A stretch of 13,789 bases of DNA from positions 1 to 13,789 of the IMG/VR virus record IMGVR_UViG_2568526722_000003, one strand, 5' to 3'. The notes beneath the pieces are model-generated. The model did not search any database. It saw only the letters and a list, made by a program, of their open reading frames with translations, and was not told the DNA's origin. Positions 1-13,789 of this stretch are shown here, piece by piece; the stretch's first letter is position 1; each line of letters starts with the position of its first letter. The position numbers and the translations under genes were made by a program. Origin of the DNA: a virus. Lineage: Duplodnaviria; Heunggongvirae; Uroviricota; Caudoviricetes.

Positions 1-161
1 TTTAACCAGGCCGTAACGCATTTGCATGCTATTGATTAGCCCGGTTGGCCCTAAACGGCGTATACTCAGGTAACGAGATACATTATCAGCAGTAAGCGAA
101 GAAGGCAGACCGCGCGCCGAGATCTCGATAAAGTCAATGTTTCCGTACAGGCATAGCGTCC

Positions 162-557
162 TCACATTTCATAGGTAATGACATAAGTCAGATCGGCTGA
201 ACTCCACAGGCCCGCATCATCGTCGCGCCGGTAGTCATAGCCGCTGGCCACCATACTGGTGATCAAATCTGACAGTGCCGGGATATCGCTCATCACCGGA
301 TAAATCCGGGACTCCATCCACGCATCCAGCTCTGAATCCGGCACCTGAGCAGGCAGGAAAACTTCGATATGCAGCTCCGCCTGCCAGGTATCGCTGTCCA
401 GCTCTTCGCCCGTGTATTCAGCGCCGGTGAGATAAACGGCAACTGCCGGAAAATCCGCCTCATCAAAAACAGCGGGGCGACCATCAAAAAACGTCGCCCC
501 GGTGTCATGCTTCTCCAGTGCATCCAGTACGGCTGCACGGAGTTCAGTATGTTTCAT
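162..557 (-). CDS. U: Minor tail protein U (lambda gpU), 131 aa
   Basis: Translation MKHTELRAAVLDALEKHDTGATFFDGRPAVFDEADFPAVAVYLTGAEYTGEELDSD... matches lambda gpU over full length as recalled; ATG start; 4-nt overlap with Z stop. Confidence 0.93.
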   Translation of the reverse strand: MKHTELRAAVLDALEKHDTGATFFDGRPAVFDEADFPAVAVYLTGAEYTGEELDSDTWQAELHIEVFLPAQVPDSELDAWMESRIYPVMSDIPALSDLITSMVASGYDYRRDDDAGLWSSADLTYVITYEM

Positions 558-1132
558 CGCTTTATTACCATCCTCAGTTGATGCTGCAGCGCATAGCCCA
601 GCTCTTTCGGAAGACGTTCACGCCGTATCCGTTCAATATTCTGTTTAAACGCCGTGGTCAGCGGCACCGCCATCGGGATTTTCACCACATCAATGGGGTA
701 ACGGTTTTTCCCGGCCACACGCTGCATAACATGCCACCGGCCGTTTTTCAGTTGCTGAATAAACGCGCCGGGAATACGACGGTTACCCACCACAAGCACA
801 CTGCCGCCACCTTTCAGGGCTGAACGCTGCCCCTTTTTACGACGCCTGCGTCGGGACAGGACAACCCGCGCGTTACCCAGCTTTATTACGGGCAAATCCC
901 CCCGGTTAACCTTGATTCTGGCCTGCGGATTTTTGACCGTGGCCCTTTTCAGCCTGGCCCTTTCCTTTACCAGTTTCCGGCGTACCTTTGTCTCACGGGC
1001 AACCTGTACCACCGACTGCGATATCGCGGATGAAGCAACGCGGTTAATGGCCATTGCGGCGGCACCGGGCACCGCCGTTCTGCTGATACGGCTGAGGTTT
1101 TCAACGGCCTGCTCAAGACCTTTTATGGCCAT
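554..1132 (-). CDS. Z: Tail completion protein Z (lambda gpZ), 192 aa
   Basis: Translation MAIKGLEQAVENLSRISRTAVPGAAAMAINRV... matches lambda gpZ as recalled; ATG at 1130-1132; lambda order FI-FII-Z-U preserved. Confidence 0.93.
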   Translation of the reverse strand: MAIKGLEQAVENLSRISRTAVPGAAAMAINRVASSAISQSVVQVARETKVRRKLVKERARLKRATVKNPQARIKVNRGDLPVIKLGNARVVLSRRRRRKKGQRSALKGGGSVLVVGNRRIPGAFIQQLKNGRWHVMQRVAGKNRYPIDVVKIPMAVPLTTAFKQNIERIRRERLPKELGYALQHQLRMVIKR

Positions 1133-1143
1133 ACATCCCCCTT

Positions 1144-1497
1144 TCAGCGGCGACGGTTAACGGCAGGCGGTACGCCCCGCCCAAGCCAGAGATGACAGCT
1201 TCCGCCATCATCCGGCGAAATCCGGTCTATCCAGAAGTTTTCCTCACCGATGGTCAGCGTGTCGCCGCGCCGCAGCTGCCGCACATCATCAGTCCGGACA
1301 AACAGGGACGGGCTGGAGCCTTCAACGCGCACGCCCTGTCCGGCATAGCTGATATTTTCAGGGTCATCAAAAACACCACGTATCACAGCACCGGACTGCT
1401 CACCGGATGTCATGGTGGCTGACGTTCCCATGTACCCGCGTATCGTTTCATCGGCGCAGGCAATGGCAGCATCGAACAGGTTATCGAAATCAGCCAC
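1144..1497 (-). CDS. FII: Head-tail joining protein FII (lambda gpFII), 117 aa
   Basis: Translation (M)ADFDNLFDAAIACADETIRGYMGTSATMTSGEQSG... matches lambda gpFII as recalled; start codon here is GTG, preceded by GGGAGG 6 nt upstream. Confidence 0.92.
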   Translation of the reverse strand: MADFDNLFDAAIACADETIRGYMGTSATMTSGEQSGAVIRGVFDDPENISYAGQGVRVEGSSPSLFVRTDDVRQLRRGDTLTIGEENFWIDRISPDDGGSCHLWLGRGVPPAVNRRR

Positions 1498-1508
1498 AGC
1501 GCCTCCCG

Positions 1509-1907
1509 TTATTGCATTCTGGCCAGGCCGCGCTCTGTCATTTCGGCTGCCACACCGGCAGAGACACGAAACGCCGTTCCCGGCAGCACAAATGCCACAG
1601 GTTCATCCCGCGTGGCGTGAAGTGCATCAGTATGCAGCTTCACCAGTGCCACGACCGTGACCAGTTCAGACGTATCCAGAATCACGGTATCCGGCTGCGC
1701 TGATCCCACCTCATTTTCATGTCCGGTCAGCACATTTTCCCGGCTGAGAGGGGTGTCCTGACCGGCAGTTTCATCCGTGTCATCAAGCTCCTCTTCCAGC
1801 TCTGCCACACGGAGCGCCAGTTCTTCTTTCGTCCCCGTCAGGCTGACATCACGGTTCAGTTGTTCACCCAGCGAGCGGAGACGGGCAATCAGTTCATCTT
1901 TCGTCAT
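1509..1907 (-). CDS. FI: DNA-packaging/head assembly protein FI (lambda gpFI), 132 aa
   Basis: The track ORF (1509..1946) contains MTKDELIARLRSLGEQLNRDVSLTGTKEELALRVAELEEELDDTDE..., the lambda gpFI sequence as recalled; real start is the ATG at 1905-1907 with GGAGGA Shine-Dalgarno; the upstream 13 codons are read-through of intergenic sequence. Confidence 0.9.
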   Translation of the reverse strand: MTKDELIARLRSLGEQLNRDVSLTGTKEELALRVAELEEELDDTDETAGQDTPLSRENVLTGHENEVGSAQPDTVILDTSELVTVVALVKLHTDALHATRDEPVAFVLPGTAFRVSAGVAAEMTERGLARMQ

Positions 1908-1948
1908 GGACTCCTCCACAGAGAAACAATGGCCCCGAAGGGCCATGA

Positions 1949-2046
1949 TTACGCCAGTTGTACGGACACGAACTCATCAGGGTCAGCCAGCAGCATCAGC
2001 GGTGCTGACTGAATCATGGTGAACTCACGCGCCGGATCCGCCAGAT
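1949..2046 (-). pseudogene. E: C-terminal remnant of major capsid gene E (last ~24 codons ...FTMIQSAPLMLLADPDEFVSVQLA*)
   Basis: Minus-strand frame just upstream of FI encodes FTMIQSAPLMLLADPDEFVSVQLA-stop, recalled as the gpE C-terminus; homology stops upstream where sequence switches to Nu1. Confidence 0.5.
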
Positions 2047-2202
2047 TTCGGCATACCATTTTATGACGGCGGCAGAGTCATAAAGCACCTCATTACCCTT
2101 GCCACCGCCTCGCAGAACGGGCATTCCCTGTTCCTGCCAGTTCTGAATGGTACGGATACTCGCACCGAAAATGTCAGCCAGCTGCTTTTTGTTGACTTCC
2201 AT
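2014..2202 (-). pseudogene. nu1: Terminase small subunit Nu1, N-terminal 52 codons only, fused to foreign tail (IWRIRRVSSP*)
   Basis: MEVNKKQLADIFGASIRTIQNWQEQGMPVLRGGGKGNEVLYDSAAVIKWYAE matches lambda Nu1 residues 1-52 as recalled; the next 10 codons are not Nu1 and run into the gene E remnant; junction around 2040-2047. Confidence 0.85.
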
Positions 2203-2379
2203 TGTTCATTCCACGGCCAAAAACAGAGAAAGGAAACGACAAAGGCCCAAAAGCTCGTTTTCAGCACCTGTCGTTTCCTTTCTTTTCAGGGGGTATTTTA
2301 AATAAAAACATTAAGTTACGACGAAGAAGAACGGAAACACCTTAAACCGGAAAATTTTCATAAATAGCAAAAACCCGCG

Positions 2380-2391
2380 AGGTCGCCGCCC
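2380..2391 (-). other. cos: cos site: 12-nt lambda cohesive end GGGCGGCGACCT (cosN core), with cosB/Nu1 leader on one side and lambda right-end sequence on the other
   Basis: Minus strand reads ...CCGGCGATCCGACAGGTTACG|GGGCGGCGACCT|CGCGGGTTTTTGCTATTTATGAAAATTTTCCGGTTTAAGG..., matching the joined lambda right and left ends as recalled; lies about 180 nt upstream of the Nu1 start. Confidence 0.85.
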
Positions 2392-2590
2392 CGTAACCTG
2401 TCGGATCGCCGGAAAGGACCCGCAAAATGATAATAATTATCATCTGCATGTCACAACGTGCATCTACGCCATCAAACCACGTCAAATAATCAATTATGAC
2501 GCAGGTATCATATTAATTGATCTGCATCAACTTAACGTAAAAACAACTTCAGACAATACAAATCAGCGACACTGAATACGGGACAACCTC

Positions 2591-2824
2591 ATGTCAACGA
2601 AGAACAGAACCCGCAGAACAACAACCCGCAACATCCGCTTTCCTAACCAAATGATTGAACAAATTAACATCGCTCTTGATCAAAAAGGGTCTGGGAACTT
2701 CTCAGCCTGGGTCATTGAAGCCTGCCGCCGAAGACTGTGCTCAGAAAAAAGAGTTTCGCCTGAAGCAAACAAAGAAAAGAGTGACATTACTGAATTGCTC
2801 AGAAAGCAGGTCAGACCAGATTGA
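2591..2824 (+). CDS. Small ribbon-helix-helix-like DNA-binding protein (77 aa), possibly YlcI/DUF3950-like
   Basis: ATG ORF; basic N-terminal tail (KNRTRRTTTR), then predicted beta-strand NIRFP and two helices (NQMIEQINIALDQ / FSAWVIEACRRRL), typical RHH topology; AT-rich; the family name is from memory and unverified. Confidence 0.55.
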   Translation: MSTKNRTRRTTTRNIRFPNQMIEQINIALDQKGSGNFSAWVIEACRRRLCSEKRVSPEANKEKSDITELLRKQVRPD

Positions 2825-2881
2825 AGCAATTTAGATAATCGTGCAGACTAGGTACCCTCATATCACATGGAAGGTACTACA

Positions 2882-3292
2882 ATGGCTCAGGTTGCCATTT
2901 TTAAACAAATATTCGATAAAGTGCGAAATAATTTAAACTATCACTGGTTTTATTCTGAACTAAAACGTCACAATGTCTCACATTACATTTACTATTTAGC
3001 CACAGAGAATATTCATCTTGTTCTTGAAAACGATAATACGGTTTTAATAAAAGGACAGGGTAAGGTTGTAAATGTAAGATTTTCAAAAAATAAATGCCTT
3101 ATAGAAGCCACATTAAAAGGATTCAAATCAGGAGAGTTATCATTTTACGAATACAGGAAAAATCTTGCTACAGCAGGGGTTTTCAGATGGATTACAAATA
3201 TCCACGAAAACAAAAGGTATTACTATACCTTTGATAATTCATTACTCTTTACTGAGAACATTCAGAACACTACACAAATATTTCCGCACTAA
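2882..3292 (+). CDS. AT-rich hypothetical protein (~137 aa), possibly DUF1398/YbcV-like moron
   Basis: Uninterrupted ORF; ATG at 2882 has a GGAAGG Shine-Dalgarno 7 nt upstream (the track start at 2867 has none); strongly AT-rich codon usage unlike the flanking phage genes; the family assignment is a recollection. Confidence 0.55.
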
Positions 3293-3337
3293 ATCATAAC
3301 GTCCGGTTTCTTCCGTGCCAGAACCGGACTCGCTGGC

Positions 3338-3502
3338 ATGATGAAATATGTGTACCCGGTAACCCCGGTGTGCATCGTTTTTGATTATTCCCGCACACTC
3401 GCGCAGAAGGAGTTCCCCGTCGGGCTACGGTCTCTGTTAATACGGGAATACGGCGACGATACAGCGCATGATGTGTCAGGCTTGAATACCTTTATCCTTT
3501 AA
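3338..3502 (+). CDS. Possible small ORF, 54 aa (MMKYVYPVTPVCIVFDYSRTLAQKEFPVGLRSLLIREYGDDTAHDVSGLNTFIL)
   Basis: ATG-initiated ORF just under the 60-aa track cutoff; sits between a stem-loop (3301-3329) and hairpin element A; no clear Shine-Dalgarno. Confidence 0.2.
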   Translation: MMKYVYPVTPVCIVFDYSRTLAQKEFPVGLRSLLIREYGDDTAHDVSGLNTFIL

Positions 3503-3970
3503 AAGGGATATCAGTTAAGTTATCCCGTGTAGGGTATAAGCCATTATCAAAGCCACTCTGTAGGGAATGGCTTTTGTGATGGCATCACTTACTCTTTACG
3601 CTGCTATCCCACTCATCCCGGAATTTTGATGGGTTATTGAAACCTTCTGCTGACATAACAACTCCTTCAATGTTTGGCTGAAATTAGGATGTCTTTCCAT
3701 CAGTCCGCCACCACAAAGAATCTTTTTTGCCATAAGGCAGGAGGTTCATCTTTCAGTGGCTGCCGGTGTTATTTCCCCACTTACTGGCTTGGGTTGTTTC
3801 GTGGTACTGCCGTTAACTGGTGGCGCACAGATTTAGTTAAATCCGTTCTCGCCTGAACTATCTTTTACATACCCGGATTGTGGGGATGTAAATCACGGTT
3901 TCATTATCAAGCCCACCAGTAGATGGGCTTTGTAATGAAGAGTTGTTATGAAAATTGCTCTAAACAAGCA

Positions 3971-4459
3971 TTAATAGCCATCAGAAGTAATCGCTACAGA
4001 TTTCAATCCCTCAATGTCATCCTTGGACAGGGCGAACCATTCACCGTGCTTTCTCTTTGCGGCAAATTTGCGATGAAGCATGTTTTCAGTTTCTCTTCCA
4101 CCAGGGATCAGGCACTCAAGCTTCAAGCAGTCTGGTCCAGAGTTGCCAAGCGATTTGATGCGTTGTGGAATGTTGGATGAATACCCAATTTTGGTTAGCC
4201 CAGTTTTCTTCGATGACAAAACGTATACCTGAGGAGGTTCTTTTCTCTGGTCTTCCATTACACGTCTCATTGTTGCCATAAGTCCGCCGTGCATCAGCAT
4301 TTCAACAAAGAACGCTGACCGAACACCTGACGACTTAAGCATGCCAGAAAATTCACTTGCCAATTCCATTAACTCTGCGATGTTTTCAGGAACTTTTTGG
4401 CAGTTATCTTCCTTGTATAAGGAAATCATTCTTTGAAGCTTTTCTTCTAATTGGTTCAT
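3971..4459 (-). CDS. T5orf172 / GIY-YIG-like domain protein (~162 aa) with an unrecognised N-terminal region
   Basis: C-terminal half (VYVLSSKKTGLTKIGYSSNIPQRIKSLGNSGPDCLKLECLIPGGRETENMLHRKFAAKRKHGEWFALSKDDIEGL) fits the T5orf172/MUG113 pattern (YVYxL...KIG.T.N..RR...L...E..LH..F...R..GEWF); the track start at 4495 is GTG, the first ATG is at 4457-4459 (MNQLEEK...). Confidence 0.6.
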   Translation of the reverse strand: MNQLEEKLQRMISLYKEDNCQKVPENIAELMELASEFSGMLKSSGVRSAFFVEMLMHGGLMATMRRVMEDQRKEPPQVYVLSSKKTGLTKIGYSSNIPQRIKSLGNSGPDCLKLECLIPGGRETENMLHRKFAAKRKHGEWFALSKDDIEGLKSVAITSDGY

Positions 4460-4608
4460 AGCGTCTTTACCTTTTAGAAAGTGAGCCTGTCTCACAGAAA
4501 AGCCGCCCCGAGATGGTCGCCACCATATACGGCAGTTCTCAGGCTCAACTTTCTGAAAGGCTCGGGTGATGTAATATGCGCGTGAGATGCGCTGTGAAAT
4601 TCAGATGT

Positions 4609-4632
4609 AAAAAAAGCCCCGCATCGCGAGGC
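4609..4632 (-). terminator. Rho-independent terminator downstream of Rz/Rz1
   Basis: Minus strand GCCTCGCGATGCGGGGC (7-bp GC-rich stem with one G-U pair, 3-nt loop) followed by TTTTTTT, about 30 nt after the Rz stop. Confidence 0.6.
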
Positions 4633-4664
4633 TCATTAAATGGACTTTGTGATTTGCAAAAAAA

Positions 4665-5123
4665 TTATTTCAGGCATTGCGTCCTGATGTATTCCTGCAG
4701 GTAGTTAACCTGCGCGGTTATCTTGTCGATTCCACTTCGGAGACGGTAATAATTGAGTTCAGCATCTGCTGTAAGTCCTGGGCTTTCTCCATCGCCCATG
4801 CCGCTGGCTCCGGTCGTTGACTTTGCACAGGTGGCGGCGACTTGCAGGCGCTTACGCCCAGCAGAAACATCAGCACGGAGACTTTCGATAGTCGCGTTAG
4901 CATCAGCAAGCTCCTTTGTGTATCTTGCGTCGAGTTCTGCTACATCACGTTGACGCTTCCGCATGTCAGCGATGGTGGCGTTCGCCTTCTCCAGTTCACT
5001 GGCCTTGTTATCGCGCTGCTCTTTGTAGGCGATTGCGTTATCACGGTAATGATTAACAGCCCATGACAGGCAGACGATGATGCAGATACCCGGCACTACC
5101 TGCTGAGGTGCCATAGGCGACAC
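4665..5123 (-). CDS. Rz: Spanin inner-membrane subunit Rz (i-spanin), N-terminus chimeric
   Basis: From [19 protein letters not shown]...KELADA... onward resembles lambda Rz as recalled; the first ~12 codons (from a GTG start) are encoded within the holin stub in another frame. Confidence 0.7.
4718..4903 (-). CDS. Rz1: Spanin outer-membrane lipoprotein Rz1 (o-spanin), embedded in Rz in the +1 frame
   Basis: [36 protein letters not shown]...: signal peptide with lipobox (LGVSAC) followed by a proline-rich region, wholly inside Rz as in lambda Rz/Rz1; ATG at 4901-4903. Confidence 0.7.
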
Positions 5124-5151
5124 CCGTTGTTAACTTATCCATGGATTTCAT
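5059..5151 (-). pseudogene. Holin remnant: first ~22 codons of a phage-21/DLP12 EssD-type holin ([22 protein letters not shown]), then out-of-frame read into Rz and stop
   Basis: ATG at 5149-5151 with GAGGTG Shine-Dalgarno; N-terminus matches S21/EssD as recalled; after ~22 codons the sequence continues as Rz in another frame; no endolysin ORF lies between holin and Rz. Confidence 0.65.
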
Positions 5152-5260
5152 AACCCCACCTCGCAGACAAAGCGGGTGTAAATTGAGGGAATACTACGAA
5201 ACGTAACAGACTCGGAGTCAGTGAATAACTCAGGTATTGGGTTATCAGCTAATATCGAGA

Positions 5261-5296
5261 CTCAAAAAATGGAAAAACCCACTCGACGGCGGGTTT
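5261..5296 (-). terminator. Candidate intrinsic terminator on the late-operon strand upstream of the holin stub
   Basis: Minus strand AAACCC-gccgtcgagt-GGGTTT followed by TTCCATTTTTTGAG. Confidence 0.3.
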
Positions 5297-5724
5297 AAGC
5301 TGTGTGACGAAGTAACCACTCTTAACAGCATAACCAATTTTTTACGTACGTAAACCACTAAATGATATTTGCGAGAATGCTACCGAGTATTGAAAACACC
5401 ACTACAAATACATAAGCAAATCTCAACAAATAACCAACAAATAATTCCCAGTGTTATTTTTAGCCGATTTAAATTGAACCTTCAAATCATAGAGCACTTA
5501 TAAATAACAACCGTTAATATAAATTGGCTAATAGATTTATTTTTATTCAGCCAAGAGCCATGAATAGGATTCGATAGAAAAAAGTTCAGATAAAAATAGA
5601 GATCTACTTCACAAATCAAACGAGAAACCAAAACTTACATCTTGAAATAATCATATTGATTAGATGAATATTTATCGCGCAGTGACATCATTTTTTAATA
5701 ATAGTTCAAAAAAAAGGGCTCACG

Positions 5725-6822
5725 ATGAAAAAATTAACAGTGGCAATTTCTGCTGTAGCTGCATCAGTACTGATGGCGATGTCTGCTCAGGCAGCTGAAA
5801 TTTATAATAAAGACAGTAACAAGCTGGATCTGTACGGGAAAGTTAATGCTAAGCACTACTTCTCCTCTAATGATGCAGATGATGGTGATACTACTTATGC
5901 CCGTCTTGGCTTCAAAGGTGAAACCCAAATCAACGATCAACTGACTGGTTTCGGTCAGTGGGAATATGAATTCAAAGGCAACCGCGCTGAATCTCAAGGT
6001 TCCTCCAAAGATAAAACCCGTCTTGCCTTCGCTGGCCTGAAATTCGGTGACTACGGCTCCATCGATTACGGCCGTAACTACGGTGTAGCATACGACATCG
6101 GTGCGTGGACTGACGTTCTGCCAGAATTCGGTGGCGATACCTGGACCCAAACAGATGTGTTCATGACTGGTCGCACCACTGGTGTTGCAACCTATCGTAA
6201 CAACGACTTCTTTGGTCTGGTTGATGGTCTGAACTTTGCTGCTCAGTACCAAGGCAAAAACGATCGTAGCGATTTCGATAACTACACCGAAGGTAACGGT
6301 GATGGCTTCGGTTTCTCTGCTACCTATGAATACGAAGGATTCGGTATCGGTGCAACTTATGCGAAATCTGATCGTACCGACACTCAAGTTAATGCAGGGA
6401 AAGTTCTTCCTGAAGTATTTGCTTCCGGTAAAAATGCAGAAGTTTGGGCCGCAGGTCTGAAATATGACGCTAACAACATTTACCTGGCCACTACCTATTC
6501 TGAAACCCAGAATATGACTGTATTTGCTGATCACTTCGTTGCTAATAAAGCTCAAAACTTCGAAGCTGTTGCACAATATCAGTTCGATTTCGGTCTGCGT
6601 CCGTCCGTTGCTTACCTGCAATCTAAAGGTAAGGATCTTGGAGTATGGGGCGATCAGGACTTAGTCAAATATGTTGATGTAGGTGCAACCTATTACTTCA
6701 ACAAAAATATGTCTACTTTCGTTGATTACAAAATCAACCTGCTTGACAAAAATGACTTCACTAAAGCACTCGGTGTAAGCACTGATGACATCGTTGCTGT
6801 AGGTCTGGTTTACCAGTTCTAA
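5725..6822 (+). CDS. nmpC: OmpC-family outer-membrane porin (NmpC / phage Lc type), 365 aa, intact
   Basis: Signal peptide [23 protein letters not shown]|AEIYNKD, porin motifs and C-terminal ...VAVGLVYQF; full-length and uninterrupted; opposite orientation to Q and the lysis genes, as for DLP12 nmpC and PA-2 lc. Confidence 0.9.
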
Positions 6823-6830
6823 TCTGATTA

Positions 6831-6872
6831 CGAAAAAGATATGTTGCGGGAGGCTTTGCCTCCCCAACATAT
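6831..6872 (-). terminator. Candidate late terminator (tR'-like) downstream of Q on the minus strand
   Basis: Minus strand ATATGTTGGGGAGGC-aaag-GCCTCCCGCAACATAT (about 15-bp stem) followed by CTTTTTCG; about 140 nt downstream of the Q stop. Confidence 0.45.
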
Positions 6873-6960
6873 AAGTGGCTCCCTCAAGCCACTTCCTTTA
6901 GGAGCACAACCTTGCTTCTAACTATATAAACCTTCTGTTATATATTACCCTTTATTTTTG

Positions 6961-6990
6961 GGGGCGTTGCAACGCCCCATTTTTAATAAT
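6961..6990 (+). terminator. Rho-independent terminator for the porin gene; perfect 18-bp palindrome
   Basis: GGGGCGTTGCAACGCCCC followed by ATTTTTAATAATTTTT on the plus strand. Confidence 0.5.
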
Positions 6991-7011
6991 TTTTAGTAAA
7001 CAACTGGCATA

Positions 7012-7395
7012 TTAATTAGAGTTATTAACAACGATATCCATCTCTAACCGGATATCTAATGCCATTAACATCCCTTCAATTATGCCCTCAGCCTTCTGTA
7101 ACCTTTTCCCGATATAACCATCAGAGCAGCAATGCTTACCTGCCAGTGACATGAATGTCATACCGACTACATAATAATCTACTAATAAATCGTGCAAATC
7201 GCTGTTGTTCTTTTTCAGACGGGCCATGCACCCGCAAATAATCATCGCGTCATCGTCACAACATTGCGGGCGAGATTTTACTTTTGAAGTAATTAATCCC
7301 TTAAAACCGGCGGCAATGGACGACCAGGTCACATCTTCATGATTATTAGCCGCCCACGCTCCCCAACGCTCAAGAACCATCTGAATATCACGCAT
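7012..7395 (-). CDS. Q: Late-gene antiterminator Q, phage 21/82 (DLP12 QuuD) type, 127 aa
   Basis: [34 protein letters not shown]...[16 protein letters not shown]... matches DLP12-type Q as recalled; ATG at 7393-7395 (the track start at 7410 is TTG). Confidence 0.85.
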
Positions 7396-7480
7396 CAACT
7401 TACTCCACAAAAATCAGGCCAGAACGCCAATTACAAGCAAAAATCAACAAAACAGTATTAGTTGATTGTTATCTCTGACT

Positions 7481-7621
7481 TCATACTCCTGCTCCTGTCA
7501 GGGTTTTGGCGTAATTCTTCAGTATTCGGTAATCGGTCAAAACAGAACCGGGGGAACGATATAAGCGCAGACGCCCCCAGCGGTGGCGAAGAAGTTCTGC
7601 CATATTAAACTCAAACATCAT
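7481..7621 (-). CDS. ylcG: Small protein YlcG-like (46 aa)
   Basis: Hand-translated [49 protein letters not shown]; its ATG overlaps the rusA stop (ATGA); matches DLP12 YlcG as recalled; below the track size cutoff. Confidence 0.6.
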
Positions 7622-7980
7622 TCATTCCCCATTTCGGTGATGGTCAGTTCCAGCCTCCCACCTTTGGTAACAGGCATCTTCACAACGCGGTAATCAACGA
7701 CCTGAGCATCATCCAGCCAGAAACCTGCTTTAGTGAGTGCGTCAAAAGCGGCTTTTTGCAGATTATCCAGGTCACGGCGACGGCGATCCGGCATGTGGCA
7801 CTCAATGCGGATTTTCACAGGCATAGCCAGGCCGATATCCAGCATTGCGTTTTTAATGATTCGGGCGACGTTATCGCGGTATGCCTGCCCCTCTGCGCTG
7901 ACGTGCGTGCGCCCTCGATTATGGCGGTAGTAGCGGTTATTGCTCGGCGGCCAGGGTAGTGTGATGTGGTAAGTATTCAC
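7618..7980 (-). CDS. rusA: Holliday-junction resolvase RusA, 120 aa
   Basis: (M)[37 protein letters not shown]...[28 protein letters not shown]... matches RusA as recalled; GTG start overlapping the upstream stop (GTGA). Confidence 0.93.
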
Positions 7981-8066
7981 GCCTTAATTACCCCCTCTTT
8001 CAGCCAGATAACCTGCGTTCTCGCCATACCTTCCAGCGCGCATTCTTTTGCATATGCAGCATCGAC
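7977..8066 (-). pseudogene. ybcO: C-terminal remnant of a YbcO-like (DUF1364) gene, about 29 codons
   Basis: Frame ending ...[29 protein letters not shown] with the stop overlapping the rusA start; matches the YbcO C-terminus as recalled; further upstream the frame hits a stop and no N-terminal YbcO-like sequence appears in any frame. Confidence 0.4.
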
Positions 8067-8186
8067 TTGCTTGGCATGCCCTTTACCGGCAATCTTCTGT
8101 ATGCGCTAAACCTAGATAGAATCCACTCTGTGCACATTGAAGCCCGCTCTATGCTTCCTTTCAGGTATTGAAGGGATTGAGATGGG

Positions 8187-8534
8187 CTAAGCATTATTGG
8201 CCTCCTGCATCAGGAGAAAGACAATCATGGCGGCGCGGAGAGGTCTGGTATCAAATATTGGGCTTACGCCTTTTGCATCCACACACCATTCAGTTAACTG
8301 GTCTAAGATAGAAATCCTGTATTTCTCAATAATCGGCCATGAAGCGCTCGGATCATTGCAGTAGTCAGGCAAATGATTTAATGGCTCAAAAGTTGTATCA
8401 GCATTTCCGTAATACCATTTGTTGGTGTTATTCCCTGATGTTTCCGGTTTACTTGCCCAAAGGCCTTTAAAAATTATGTCTCCTACCATTCTGTTAATTT
8501 CAAAATCACTTAACTGTGAATAATCCATTGTCAT
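8187..8534 (-). CDS. Hypothetical nin-region protein (~115 aa)
   Basis: [92 protein letters not shown]...; ATG overlaps the ninE stop (ATGA); GAGGAA nearby; family not recognised. Confidence 0.5.
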
Positions 8535-8707
8535 TTCCTCGCACGATATCTTAGCCACCGGATATCCCACAGGTGAGCTGTGTAATTGAAGGTTTTTACG
8601 TCAGATTCTTTTGGGATTGGCTTGCGTTTATTTCTGGAGCGTTTCGTTGGAAGGTATTTGCAGTTTTCGCAGATGATGTCGGTGAAACTTCGTCGCTGTC
8701 GCCTCAT
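8531..8707 (-). CDS. ninE: NinE, 58 aa
   Basis: [58 protein letters not shown] matches lambda NinE as recalled; ATG overlaps the methyltransferase stop. Confidence 0.75.
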
Positions 8708-9231
8708 GCCGCCCTCCTGACGCCCTGCCCGAACGCCATCAATGCCGCTTTGGATACGGTAGTAAACATCCGTCGAGGACTGATGAACGGTCGCCAAATC
8801 AGCAGCATGGAGCCTTTGCTGTTTCCCTTCTTCTCCAGCCCTGTCGATGGTTCGATAAAATTAATCCGTCCATCAGTGATAATGCGAACTTCGTCGACAC
8901 TCTCCAGAGCCTTGCTGAACCATCCGACTGACATATCCTCTGGCACAAGCATAACTACCGTCTGTCGCTGTTGTATGCACTGCTCAGCGGCTTTTTCCAC
9001 CCACGGCCTGATATTGCTGTACGGTGGGTTATTCCAGATTGCACCGTGGCTTACCCACTCAGAATTGAGCGCGTCGTCGGCCTCAGTTAGCCAGTGAGCA
9101 CACAGAGCATTTTTGTCGCTCGCTGCCGAATCCAGCCAGAATCCAAACTCAATATCCAGTGCATCAAAAAGCCAAAGCGGCGTTTGCCAGCAGTCCTTGT
9201 CGTGTGCTGGCGTATTTGATTTGATAGTCAT
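8704..9231 (-). CDS. Phage Dam-like DNA N6-adenine methyltransferase (~175 aa)
   Basis: [50 protein letters not shown]...[16 protein letters not shown]...: NPPY catalytic motif and DxxA...WxTP pattern of the small phage N6-A methyltransferase family; ATG at 9229-9231 with GGGGAGA upstream; overlaps the ninB stop. Confidence 0.75.
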
Positions 9232-9737
9232 GCAGCTCGATCTCCCCATCTCGCTTTCCACTCCAGAGCCAGTCTCGCTTCGTCTGACCACTTAACGCCA
9301 CGCTCTGTACCGAATGCCTGTATAAGCTCTAATAGCTCCGCAAATTCGTTTACACGCATCCTGCTGGTTGACTGGCCTATTACCACAAAGCCATTCCCGG
9401 CAAGGTTAGGAACAACATCCTGCTGCTTTAATGCTGCGGTAAACACACACTTCCAGCTTTCTGCATCCAGCCAGCGACCATGCCATTCAACCTGACGAGA
9501 GACGTCACCAAGGCAAGCCCAAAGCTTTCGATTCTGGTCTAAGCTGCGGTTGCGTTCCTGAATGGTTACTACGATTGGTTTGGTTGGGTCTGGAAGAATT
9601 TGCTGTAACCGCCCTATTCTCTCGCTGAATCGCAAACCGAAATCACGAGTAGAAAGCGCACTGAATCCGATAGACCTTACGGTGCTGGCTGAATACCACG
9701 AACAGATTGAAAGCAACCTGCAACGTATTGAGCGCAA
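9228..9737 (-). CDS. ninB: Recombination protein NinB (Orf), C-terminal ~125 aa lambda-like, N-terminal ~44 codons atypical with no canonical start
   Basis: From QQILPDPTKPIVVTIQERNRSLDQNRKLWACLGDVSRQVEWHGRWLDAESWKCVFTAALKQQ... to the stop matches lambda NinB as recalled; the preceding 44 codons do not, and the track start is a TTG. Confidence 0.65.
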   Translation of the reverse strand: MRSIRCRLLSICSWYSASTVRSIGFSALSTRDFGLRFSERIGRLQQILPDPTKPIVVTIQERNRSLDQNRKLWACLGDVSRQVEWHGRWLDAESWKCVFTAALKQQDVVPNLAGNGFVVIGQSTSRMRVNEFAELLELIQAFGTERGVKWSDEARLALEWKARWGDRAA

Positions 9738-9839
9738 GAATCATCGAGTTTGGTATAGCAAGCCAAGTGAGTTCGGTATAACTTGTCAAGGAAGACAAAA
9801 GGTTAAAGGGAAATCCATTCCATTGGCATGAGGTACGTA

Positions 9840-10169
9840 ATGAAGAAAATTGATTACAAGTCCATACCAAAACCAATAGACTCAGCATCAGAGCGAAAAA
9901 AACACAAAAAAGAGGCTGAAAAATTAGCAAATTATATCAGTTTTATTAGAAACAATGCTCACGGCGATGGCGACAGGAAGTTGCTTTCAGATGCCCGGAC
10001 CCAAGCGTTCAGTATACTTCGTAAGCAGATGCAATATCGTCTTCATCCAGGCTACATAATTGAAATTCGCCCGACTGAAAGACAATTGTTCTTATTAAAC
10101 TCTGTCTTTGACTTTGTAAACGTAGTTGGAGATCTTATCGACAGGTCTGTAGATAAGGCTCCTGGGTGA
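9840..10169 (+). CDS. AT-rich hypothetical protein, 3' end cut by IS1 (stop supplied by the IS1 left end)
   Basis: ORF MKKIDYKSIPKPIDSASERKKHKKEAEKLANYISFIRNNAHGDGDRKLLSDARTQAFSILRKQMQYRLHPGYIIEIRPTERQLFLLNSVFDFVNVVGDLIDRSVDKAPG*; ATG at 9840 with GAGG 8 nt upstream; low GC; the last codons and stop (GG TGA) are IS1 sequence; no family recognised. Confidence 0.45.
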   Translation: MKKIDYKSIPKPIDSASERKKHKKEAEKLANYISFIRNNAHGDGDRKLLSDARTQAFSILRKQMQYRLHPGYIIEIRPTERQLFLLNSVFDFVNVVGDLIDRSVDKAPG

Positions 10170-10219
10170 TGCTGCCAACTTACTGATTTAGTGTATGATG
10201 GTGTTTTTGAGGTGCTCCA

Positions 10220-10495
10220 GTGGCTTCTGTTTCTATCAGCTGTCCCTCCTGTTCAGCTACTGACGGGGTGGTGCGTAACGGCAAAAGCACCGCCGGACAT
10301 CAGCGCTATCTCTGCTCTCACTGCCGTAAAACATGGCAACTGCAGTTCACTTACACCGCTTCTCAACCCGGTACGCACCAGAAAATCATTGATATGGCCA
10401 TGAATGGCGTTGGATGCCGGGCAACTGCCCGCATTATGGGCGTTGGCCTCAACACGATTTTACGTCACTTAAAAAACTCAGGCCGCAGTCGGTAA
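10220..10495 (+). CDS. insA: IS1 InsA (transposition inhibitor / transposase N-terminal part), 91 aa
   Basis: [43 protein letters not shown]... matches IS1 InsA. Confidence 0.95.
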
Positions 10496-10917
10496 CCTCG
10501 CGCATACAGCCGGGCAGTGACGTCATCGTCTGCGCGGAAATGGACGAACAGTGGGGCTATGTCGGGGCTAAATCGCGCCAGCGCTGGCTGTTTTACGCGT
10601 ATGACAGTCTCCGGAAGACGGTTGTTGCGCACGTATTCGGTGAGCGCACTATGGCGACGCTGGGGCGTCTTATGAGCCTGCTGTCACCCTTTGACGTGGT
10701 GATATGGATGACGGATGGCTGGCCGCTGTATGAATCCCGCCTGAAGGGAAAGCTGCACGTAATCAGCAAGCGATATACGCAGCGAATTGAGCGGCATAAC
10801 CTGAATCTGAGGCAGCACCTGGCACGGCTGGGACGGAAGTCGCTGTCGTTCTCAAAATCGGTGGAGCTGCATGACAAAGTCATCGGGCATTATCTGAACA
10901 TAAAACACTATCAATAA
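10414..10917 (+). CDS. insB: IS1 InsB' frame (transposase catalytic part, expressed as InsAB' by -1 frameshift)
   Basis: ...[72 protein letters not shown]... matches IS1 InsB. Confidence 0.93.
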
Positions 10918-11042
10918 GTTGGAGTCATTACCAGAAAGCAGGTCTTTCTCTCGTGTAGAGATAAGCGAGTCAGAGTTATGGGGTATATCAAATAATCCTG
11001 TAAACCACGCTCACCAACGAAATCCAAACAAAAAGTGGTCAT

Positions 11043-11067
11043 AACCCGCTCAGGCGGGTTTCATTTT
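11043..11067 (+). terminator. Candidate intrinsic terminator upstream of ea10 (possibly tL2-like)
   Basis: AACCCGC-tcag-GCGGGTT followed by TCATTTTCA. Confidence 0.4.
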
Positions 11068-11231
11068 CACGCAAACAAAAGAATAAACACTGCACTGTGT
11101 ATTCATTCCAACGAGTGAATACACGGAGCAATGTCGCTCGTAACTAAACAGGAGCCGACTTGTTCTGATTATTGGAAATCTTCTTTGACCTCTAATGTGA
11201 GGGCGATTTTTTTCTGTGAGGATATGAACAG

Positions 11232-11600
11232 ATGTCAAACATCAAAAAATACATCATTGATTACGACTGGAAAGCATCAATAGAAATTGAAATCGACCAT
11301 GACTTAATGACAGAGGAAAAACTTCACAAGATTAATAATTTCTGGTCAGACTCTGAATACCGACTCAATAAACACGGCTCTGTATTAAATGCTGTATTAA
11401 TCATGCTGGCGCAACATGCTCTGCTTATAGCAATTTCAAGCGACTTAAATGCATATGGTGTTGTGTGTGAGTTCGACTGGAATGATGGAAATGGTCAGGA
11501 AGGATGGCCTACAATGGATGGTAGCGAAGGAATAAGAATTACCGATATCGATACATCAGGAATATTTGATTCAGATGATATGACTATCAAAGCCGCCTGA
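11232..11600 (+). CDS. ea10: Ea10 (lambda early protein, ssDNA-binding), 122 aa
   Basis: MSNIKKYIIDYDWKASIEIEIDHDLMTEEKLHKINNFWSDSEYRLNKHG...; size and position immediately upstream of cIII match lambda ea10 as recalled. Confidence 0.75.
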   Translation: MSNIKKYIIDYDWKASIEIEIDHDLMTEEKLHKINNFWSDSEYRLNKHGSVLNAVLIMLAQHALLIAISSDLNAYGVVCEFDWNDGNGQEGWPTMDGSEGIRITDIDTSGIFDSDDMTIKAA

Positions 11601-11672
11601 GCGCGGCGTTACCGCATACCAATAACGCTTCACTCGAGGCGTTTTTCGTTATGTATAAATAAGGAGCACACC

Positions 11673-11837
11673 ATGCAATATGCCATTGCAGGGTGGCCTG
11701 TTGCTGGCTGCCCTTCCGAATCTTTACTTGAACGAATCACCCGTAAATTACGTGACGGATGGAAACGCCTTATCGACATACTTAATCAGCCAGGAGTCCC
11801 AAAAAATGGATCAAACACTTATGGCTATCCAGACTAA
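11673..11837 (+). CDS. cIII: CIII (FtsH/HflB protease inhibitor), 54 aa
   Basis: Hand-translated [54 protein letters not shown] matches lambda CIII; AAGGAG Shine-Dalgarno upstream; the track merged it with kil. Confidence 0.9.
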   Translation: MQYAIAGWPVAGCPSESLLERITRKLRDGWKRLIDILNQPGVPKNGSNTYGYPD

Positions 11838-11949
11838 ATTCACTATCGCCACTTTTATTGGCGATGAAAAGATGTTTCGTGAAGCCGTCGACGCTTATAA
11901 AAAATGTATATTAATGCTGAAACTGAGATCAAGCAAAAGCATTCACTAA
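11806..11949 (+). CDS. kil: Kil (host FtsZ/cell-division inhibitor), 47 aa
   Basis: [47 protein letters not shown] matches lambda Kil as recalled; overlaps the cIII 3' end as in lambda. Confidence 0.85.
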
Positions 11950-12024
11950 CCCCCTTTCCTGTTTTCCTAATCAGCCTGGCATTTCGCGGGCGCTATTTTC
12001 ACAGCCATTTTCAGGAGTTCAGCC

Positions 12025-12321
12025 ATGAACGCTTATTACATTCAGGATCGTCTTGAGGCTCAGAGCTGGGCGCGTCACTACCAGCAGATCGCCCGTGAAG
12101 AGAAAGAGGCAGAACTGGCAGACGACATGGAAAAAGGCCTGCCCCAGCACCTGTTTGAATCGCTATGCATCGATCATTTGCAACGCCACGGGGCCAGCAA
12201 AAAAGCCATTACCCGTGCGTTTGATGACGATGTTGAGTTTCAGGAGCGCATGGCAGAACACATCCGGTACATGGTTGAAACCATTGCTCACCACCAAGTT
12301 GATATTGATTCAGAGGTATAA
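12025..12321 (+). CDS. gam: Gam (RecBCD inhibitor), GamS form, 98 aa
   Basis: [98 protein letters not shown] matches lambda Gam. Confidence 0.93.
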
Positions 12322-12326
12322 AACGG

Positions 12327-13112
12327 ATGAGTACAGCACTCGCAACGCTGGCAGGGAAGCTGGCTGAACGTGTCGGCATGGATTCTGTCGACCCACAGGA
12401 ACTGATCACCACTCTTCGCCAGACGGCATTTAAAGGTGATGCCAGCGATGCGCAGTTCATCGCATTGTTGATCGTCGCCAACCAGTACGGCCTTAATCCG
12501 TGGACGAAAGAAATTTACGCCTTCCCTGATAAGCAGAACGGCATCGTTCCGGTGGTGGGCGTTGATGGCTGGTCCCGCATCATCAATGAAAACCAGCAGT
12601 TTGATGGCATGGACTTTGAGCAGGACAATGAATCCTGTACATGCCGGATTTACCGCAAGGACCGTAATCATCCGATCTGCGTTACCGAATGGATGGATGA
12701 ATGCCGCCGCGAACCATTCAAAACTCGCGAAGGCAGAGAAATCACGGGGCCGTGGCAGTCGCATCCCAAACGGATGTTACGGCATAAAGCCATGATTCAG
12801 TGTGCCCGTCTGGCCTTCGGATTTGCTGGTATCTATGACAAGGATGAAGCCGAGCGCATTGTCGAAAATACTGCATACACTGCAGAACGTCAGCCAGAAC
12901 GCGACATCACTCCGGTTAACGATGAAACCATGCAGGAGATTAACACTCTGCTGATCGCCCTGGATAAAACATGGGATGACGACTTATTGCCGCTCTGTTC
13001 CCAGATATTTCGCCGCGACATTCGCGCATCGTCAGAACTGACACAGGCCGAAGCAGTGAAAGCTCTTGGATTCCTGAAACAGAAAGCCACTGAGCAGAAG
13101 GTGGCAGCATGA
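12327..13112 (+). CDS. bet: Bet (Red-beta single-strand annealing recombinase), 261 aa
   Basis: Full-length match to lambda Bet ([44 protein letters not shown]...). Confidence 0.96.
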
Positions 13113-13789
13113 TACCGGACATTATCCTGCAGCGTACCGGGATCGACGTGAGAGCTGTCGAACAGGGGGATGATGCATGGCACAAATTACGGCTCGGCGT
13201 CATCACCGCTTCAGAAGTTCACAACGTGATAGCAAAGCCCCGCTCAGGAAAGAAGTGGCCTGACATGAAAATGTCCTACTTCCACACCCTGCTGGCTGAG
13301 GTTTGCACCGGTGTGGCTCCGGAAGTTAATGCTAAGGCGCTGGCCTGGGGAAAACAGTACGAGAACGACGCCAGAACCCTGTTTGAATTCACTTCCGGCG
13401 TGAATGTTACTGAATCCCCGATCATCTATCGCGACGAAAATATGCGCACTGCCTGCTCTCCCGATGGTTTATGCAGTGACGGCAACGGCCTTGAACTGAA
13501 ATGCCCGTTTACCTCCCGGGATTTCATGAAATTCCGGCTCGGTGGTTTCGAGGCAATAAAATCGGCTTACATGGCCCAGGTGCAGTACAGCATGTGGGTG
13601 ACGCGAAAAGATGCCTGGTACTTTGCCAACTATGACCCGCGCATGAAGCGTGAAGGCCTGCATTATGTCGTGATTGAGCGGAATGAAAAGTACATGGCGA
13701 GTTTTGACGAGATGGTGCCGGAGTTCATCGAAAAAATGGACGAGGCACTGGCTGAAATTGGTTTTGTATTTGGGGAGCAATGGCGATGA
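13109..13789 (+). CDS. exo: Exo (Red-alpha 5'-3' exonuclease), 226 aa
   Basis: Full-length match to lambda Exo ([40 protein letters not shown]...GFVFGEQWR*); ATGA overlap with bet; the stop codon is the last 3 nt of the window. Confidence 0.96.

Follow-up and report, generated by a model that had tools for sequence, protein, structure and literature searches.

The classical adjacent deletions made by IS1 are those of the gal region. The element itself is 768 bp long and duplicates 8-9 bp of its target (PMC12428005), its replicative deletions have been described (Turlan and Chandler, 1995, as cited in PMC12428005), and the absence of a duplication usually reflects adjacent deletion or IS-IS recombination (PMC11708052). 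Here we describe an IS1 copy that lacks a duplication in a 13,789-bp stretch of DNA (IMG/VR record IMGVR_UViG_2568526722_000003; called the window throughout, meaning the whole stretch that was analysed), the remnant of the early region of a cryptic lambdoid prophage that occupies the argU (DLP12) site and whose pL arm is of the phage 434 type. We consider it quite likely that the remnant has suffered two separate lesions 558 bp apart, one an IS-free deletion of the immunity region and the other an IS1 insertion, followed by an adjacent deletion of 442 bp from the right terminal repeat (IRR) of the element.

The closest described prophage systems are DLP12 and phage 434. Like DLP12 of E. coli K-12, the remnant belongs to the argU site, a tRNA-Arg gene beside fimZ/sfm with an integrase fragment, and the two have in common the late-regulatory block made up of quuD, ylcG, rusA, ninE, an nmpC-like porin gene and essD. 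In contrast to DLP12, the remnant keeps a 434-type pL arm (ea10, cIII, kil, gam, bet, exo) together with some tail and head genes, and it has deletion scars of its own and IS1, as opposed to the IS3/IS5 of the K-12 prophage. Phage 434 (OL657226; locus L013) shares with the remnant the succession of N, a gene with a Nun-like tail (the Nun-tail gene), a terminator (in the remnant, a terminator-like hairpin), ea10, cIII, kil, gam, bet and exo at ~98% nucleotide identity, as well as ninB and a methyltransferase gene on the other side at 96.7%. Compared with phage 434, the remnant is missing 4,268 bp (ninB codon ~21 to N codon ~34) and 433 bp of the Nun-tail gene, and it has gained IS1. The nearest complete genome is that of E. 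coli O9:H10 Res13-Lact-PEB20-37-A (L001), which is 99.84% identical over window positions 1-10932 and 100% identical over positions 10933-13789 (2,857 bp), and in which PGAP annotates, in order, ninB, an N pseudogene, a 109-codon ORF, IS1, ea10, cIII, kil, gam, bet and exo. The argU tRNA-Arg site with its integrase remnant beside fimZ/sfm is not part of the window itself but was seen in its syntenic loci L001, L003, L005 and L009-L012. RefSeq or GenBank already has annotations for all of the prophage genes. Of the 17 positions at which the window differs from L001, 13 are packed into 67 bp (window 22-88) at the far left end of the window, downstream of tail gene U; such clustering points to a recombination boundary, or to a divergent tail module that lies beyond the window.

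The element at 10165-10932 (+ strand) is a complete IS1A-type IS1 of exactly 768 bp. Its 23-nt terminal inverted repeats, IRL (10165-10187) and IRR (10910-10932, intact to the last base, …CATTACC), read GGTGATGCTGCCAACTTACTGAT / GGTAATGACTCCAACTTATTGAT, start with GGT and have arms that are 78% complementary; they account for both matches to the IS1-end consensus in the window, where 0 would be expected. The transposase frames are insA (10220-10495, +; Pfam Zn_ribbon_InsA and HTH_Tnp_IS1) and insB' (10414-10917, +; Pfam DDE_Tnp_IS1, E=6e-78), the accessions behind these domain calls being PF03811, PF12759 and PF03400. The two frames overlap, and an A6C -1 frameshift motif is found at 10471-10477 within TTAAAAAACTC (10469-10479). 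PGAP labels the identical copy in L001 'IS1A family transposase, programmed frameshift', and the window copy is also 100% identical to the same-site IS1 in L003, L005 and L009.

The 9-mers that touch this IS1, AGGCTCCTG on the left (10156-10164) and AGAAAGCAG on the right (10933-10941), agree at four of nine positions. The sequence-only reading, which had reported a complete IS1 with these differing 9-mers at these positions and without a duplication, was borne out. It had also named an 8-9 bp duplication found on closer alignment as a possible refutation, and no 8- or 9-bp repeat abuts both IS1 ends in the window. The same script recovered the duplications of IS1 copies in unrelated prophages used as controls (9 bp, GGGAGATTC, in L004; 8 bp, GCACTGTG, in L006), and AGGCTCCTG occurs once in the window and once in the IS1-free gene. 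A 7-mer, caggtct, present at 10142-10148 and 10939-10945, was considered as a duplication and set aside as a chance match, its left copy lying 16 nt off the left end of the element. That a duplication was once present across the current flanks and has since decayed by point mutation is vanishingly improbable: the four matching positions are all that speaks for such decay, while in relatives without IS1 the two flanks are separated by 433 bp, and sister strains retain the true duplicate copy.

Both flanks derive from one 289-codon accessory gene downstream of N, in the same orientation and collinear. On the left, an ORF at 9840-10169 (+) is the 5′ part of a gene for a 'Nun C-terminal peptide-containing protein'; it has 108 native codons, reads into IS1 and stops at a TGA inside IRL (PGAP lists it in L001 as a 109-codon hypothetical gene), and tblastn with the 289-aa protein of strain H6 matches the window left of IS1 at 100% identity over residues 1-108. 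On the right, the 3′ remnant of the same gene (10934-11044, +) comprises 36 codons and a stop with a Nun-like tail, …NHAHQRNPNKKWS, matches residues 249-289 of the H6 protein by tblastn, and corresponds at residues 270-289 to PHROG 5632 ('Nun-like', E=4e-5). The H6 protein is 96.9% identical to CPT_434_48 of phage 434, annotated 'Nun C-terminal peptide-containing protein', which lies directly between N and ea10. In the prophage of strain H6 (L002), which has no IS1, the gene is intact (L002 12235-13104), window 9606-10164 corresponds to L002 12001-12559, and window 10933 onward corresponds to L002 from 12993. Comparison with IS1-free relatives had been proposed as a check, and in both H6 and phage 434 the two flanks do lie 433 bp apart in a single gene. 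Searches of Pfam and PADLOC with the 289-aa protein gave no match, and the PHROGs and the phage 434 record identify its Nun-like tail only. In its last ~20 residues the protein is similar to the arrest peptide at the C terminus of Nun, the exclusion factor of HK022. The disrupted gene is followed by a terminator-like hairpin (11043-11060, +; consensus scan), and the phage 434 record annotates a terminator in the interval from the Nun-tail gene to ea10. The first intact gene rightward is ea10 (11232-11600, +; Pfam DUF2528, E=4e-46; PGAP of L001), after which come cIII, kil, gam, bet and exo. The left flank is thus the Nun-tail gene after N and not nin, so IS1 does not lie between the nin genes and ea10.

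The relatives of the remnant indicate how the duplication disappeared. At 10156-10164 (+) the window retains AGGCTCCTG as the left copy, and its left junction (…AGGCTCCTG followed directly by GGTGATG…) is identical to those of L001 and of L007 and L008, two metagenome contigs that end inside IS1. Seven complete genomes with the same argU locus and IS1 orientation read …CATTACC, then AGGCTCCTG, then ATACAAATAG…, and continue into an intact 3′ part of the gene; in L003, L009, L010, L011 and L012 the right IS1 end is immediately followed by AGGCTCCTG. Given that AGGCTCCTG stands on the left in the window and L001 and on the right in L003 and L009-L012, the comparison establishes an ancestor that carried a simple IS1 insertion with AGGCTCCTG as its 9-bp duplication. 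No genome with both duplicate copies was found among those searched; the left junction occurs in only two genomes, both of which have already lost 150 bp on the right. The sequence-only reading had favored adjacent deletion or recombination over simple insertion, of which the IS1-anchored deletion stands, while the relatives show that the ancestor was a simple insertion after all.

The deletion junction proper is at 10932/10933, where 442 bp are missing, namely 433 bp of the gene and the right 9-bp duplicate. The intact IRR terminus is precisely where the deletion begins, and it is joined there to gene position +433. The missing DNA is represented by L003 8769-9210 (442 bp), which directly follows IRR there and then continues into the right flank of the window, and by positions 12560-12992 of the H6 locus and 9326-9758 of the phage 434 locus. 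The right junction of the window has no contiguous match in 5,426 complete E. coli genomes, in GTDB species-representative genomes or in JGI metagenome contigs; it is therefore known from one assembly, and the 442-bp allele, absent from all collections searched, is new at the allele level only. A misjoin across the multicopy IS1 could produce a false junction of this kind, as could be suspected from its uniqueness to the window and from short-read contigs of the locus, which do break inside IS1. Misjoins normally link distant loci, however, and here the right flank comes from 433 bp further down the same gene, with its orientation kept, the 2,857 bp beyond the junction match the syntenic L001 without a difference, and sister genomes have analogous real deletions, so that an assembly artefact seems very improbable.

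The immunity and replication genes were lost at another place. A deletion scar at 9606/9607, located by blastn breakpoints against L004, L002 and phage 434 and by a three-way alignment, joins ninB codon ~21 to N codon ~34. Homology on the ninB side (L004, phage 434) ends at 9607 and homology on the N side (L002, phage 434) begins at 9606, with a 2-bp overlap, TA; the junction lies 558 bp left of IS1, and no IS sequence is present at 9606/9607. Measured on phage 434, the gap spans 4,268 bp, and with it went orf26, ren, P, O with ori, oop, cII, nutR, cro, OR, cI, hex, OL, pL, nutL and the 5′ third of N. The truncated ninB (9228-9635, -; PGAP of L001) lacks ~20 N-terminal codons, its frame now starting inside antisense N, and matches only positions 19-131 of the Pfam NinB profile and residues 18-146 by tblastn. 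N is reduced to a pseudogene of its C-terminal 75 codons (9604-9831, +; PGAP 'antitermination protein N, missing N-terminus'; PHROG 271, E=4e-11; no Pfam match), having lost ~33 codons that include the whole N36 arginine-rich peptide, which Pfam N36 detects over residues 2-36 of intact N.

These breakpoints contradict the earlier claim that IS1 marks the deletion of the immunity and replication region, since the scar carries no IS and the IS1 flanks are one pL-arm gene. It is extremely improbable that all DNA from nin to ea10 was lost in one step through IS1, either by deletion or by recombination of two IS1 copies, and breakpoint mapping has already refuted this reading. It would fit the absence of the immunity and replication genes and an IS1 without a duplication, but an N fragment and 108 codons of the next gene stand between ninB and IS1, the nin-side breakpoint is 558 bp away and has no IS sequence, and the relatives are proof that IS1 had simply inserted into the Nun-tail gene and duplicated its target there. 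As for the genes reported absent, tblastn (E<=1e-3) found no homologues of ren, P, O, cII, cro, cI or ral in the window, in agreement with the sequence-only reading; N had been listed with them, which holds for its function only, as its 75 C-terminal codons remain. Counting rex, sieB and ral among the expected losses was mistaken, as these are lambda-specific and the pL arm here is of the phage 434 type (N, Nun-tail gene, ea10). The same reading was right that the remnant has no repressor, replication genes or functional N (tblastn, Pfam, PGAP).

The ninB-N scar occurs in 3 of the 5,426 complete E. coli genomes and in two metagenome contigs, always in the same remnant, and it therefore predates the diversification of the deletions at the IS1 flanks. 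It accompanies the left IS1 junction in L001, L007 and L008, and in strain ES2 (L005) it accompanies the same IS1 copy with the left junction lost; all retrieved sequences that keep the scar also have this IS1 copy. An identical 9-mer, TTGGTTGGG, is present in both parents of the scar in exact register, 17 nt left of the TA crossover (window 9580-9607). Its copies at the phage 434 locus (L013 4473-4481 and 8741-8749) are spaced 4,268 bp apart, the length of the deletion, and a 9-mer in register within +-30 nt would arise by chance with a probability of roughly 2e-4; a primer that slipped while held by the 9-mer may lie behind this. PGAP annotation of the identical L001 region lists other truncated genes, including DNA-packaging fragments abutting FI (window ~1949-2202), an essD stub without a lysozyme gene (5086-5151) and a DUF1364 stub (7977-8066), so that the remnant has several further IS-free deletion scars in addition to the ninB-N one.

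Among 12 related genomes and the window, the shared IS1 copy has 8 distinct flank states, all one-sided, with each endpoint at an intact IS1 terminus, and at least 9 independent deletion endpoints, 3 from IRR and 6 from IRL. The left flank is intact in the window, which lacks 442 bp on the right, and in L001 and its sister CP062851, which lack 150 bp on the right; the nearest genome, CP062853, has the same left junction as the window and 292 bp more on the right. ES2 has lost 332 bp on the left (331 if an ambiguous junction G is counted as flank) and 895 bp on the right, into ea10. The right flank is intact in the others: strain 300081 (L010) has lost 1,706 bp on the left, 13P484A, EC190486 and CH4784 (the L003 type) have lost 6,450 bp (window 3715-10164), and in S1-INA-02-B, H2 (L012) and KMi012 (L011) the left IS1 end abuts a point that differs from strain to strain, 168-789 bp past cusS. 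Endpoints that all coincide with an intact IS1 terminus are the signature of IS-mediated adjacent deletion, and the aligned junctions clearly indicate deletions at this copy that are one-sided and nested.

Some of the copies in this series have variant bodies. The IS1 of KMi012 (L011 6303-7070) has 7 differences from that of the window, at positions 127-480, and the IS1 of H2 (L012 7001-7769) is frameshifted and has 26, at positions 127-522, while both copies share the final ~250 bp and the right junction with the window. These bodies look like chimeras from IS1 x IS1 recombination or gene conversion that accompanied the deletions to the cusS region, and IS1 x IS1 exchange therefore also acts at this copy, at least for very large deletions. 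Genomes of these lineages each have at least 39-40 IS1 places, against a median of 10-11. IS1-linked deletions are apparently common in this IS1-rich lineage, whose genomes are small (4.53-4.72 Mb). A second IS1 in ES2 (L005 20128-20895), between an sfmD remnant and folD, has no duplication (TGAAATTTC / TAATTTCAT), and sfmA and sfmC are missing there. In the same remnant of strain 300081, quuD (a Q-type antiterminator gene) is split by IS3 (L010 4549-5711), another independent IS hit. We think it unlikely, though conceivable, that the shared IS1 copy is a recurrent deletion generator by which the prophage is being taken apart, through unusual activity or through selection against its neighbors (the Nun-tail gene, kil, the late region) as opposed to neutral decay. 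Independent IS1 insertions were found in two unrelated prophages at the lambda attachment site beside ybhC, one upstream of N (L004 6001-6768) and the other just upstream of ea10 (L006 9003-9770), and the A+T-rich interval from N to ea10 may be a preferred IS1 target. A match in the wild boar isolate J31 was rejected as a relative of the shared copy, since IS1 there had inserted independently, into another prophage that sits at the lambda attachment site.

The history of the remnant can be proposed as follows. An old, illegitimate, IS-free deletion would have joined ninB to N at 9606/9607 and removed the immunity and replication region, and IS1 would independently have transposed into the gene after N, duplicating the 9 bp AGGCTCCTG. 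Later, in the lineage of the window, IRR would have attacked a site 433 bp downstream on the same molecule (intramolecular transposition, or adjacent deletion), taking the right duplicate and 433 bp with it and leaving IS1 and the left flank unchanged. The mapped coordinates and the separate scar place the two lesions apart; the order of the immunity deletion and the IS1 insertion is one that we infer. The 442-bp loss was probably made by transposase action and not by recombination with a second, transient IS1. The latter route, RecA-dependent recombination between the resident IS1 and a second copy in direct orientation 433 bp downstream, would give the same end product and the same final sequence, and both the number of IS1 places in these genomes and the chimeric-looking bodies in L011 and L012, as signs of IS1-IS1 exchange at this copy, lend it some plausibility. 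It would, however, require two extra events (a second insertion and the recombination) within 433 bp, and a contiguous IS1 end abutting AGAAAGCAG occurs in no genome searched. The 100% identity of the window IS1 to the ancestral-site copy might also seem to count against recombination but is uninformative, other copies being identical too. We regard recombination as distinctly unlikely, and favor intramolecular transposition for its parsimony and because no second-copy intermediate at AGAAAGCAG is seen in the genomes searched.

As it stands, the remnant would be unable to repress, replicate or antiterminate. The Red genes and quuD are left without their native promoters because pL, pR, nutL and nutR are gone and N is headless; the sequence-only reading was correct in stating that Q and the Red genes lack their normal regulation. 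IS1 is strongly polar, and the Red genes and quuD sit behind both IS1 and the hairpin at 11043-11060. For the Red genes and Q, silence would be the likeliest outcome, and not deregulated expression.

IS1 adjacent deletion is a textbook process and the present case is one of ordinary prophage decay, which leaves knowledge of IS1, of lambdoid prophages and of their regulation unchanged. It does illustrate that an IS without a duplication near a large gap in gene order need not be the cause of that gap. As in the known IS1 adjacent deletions, the element here is intact, the deletions start exactly at one terminal repeat with the other flank unchanged, the product has no duplication, and several nested endpoints arise from one copy. 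No difference of mechanism is visible; the classical deletions came from selection experiments, whereas this series, with a presumed role of transposase, comes from natural isolates. Set beside them, the sister genomes provide a clean natural example in which one IS1 copy trims a cryptic prophage from both ends in IS1-rich lineages, an allelic series that can serve teaching or help to calibrate IS-deletion callers.
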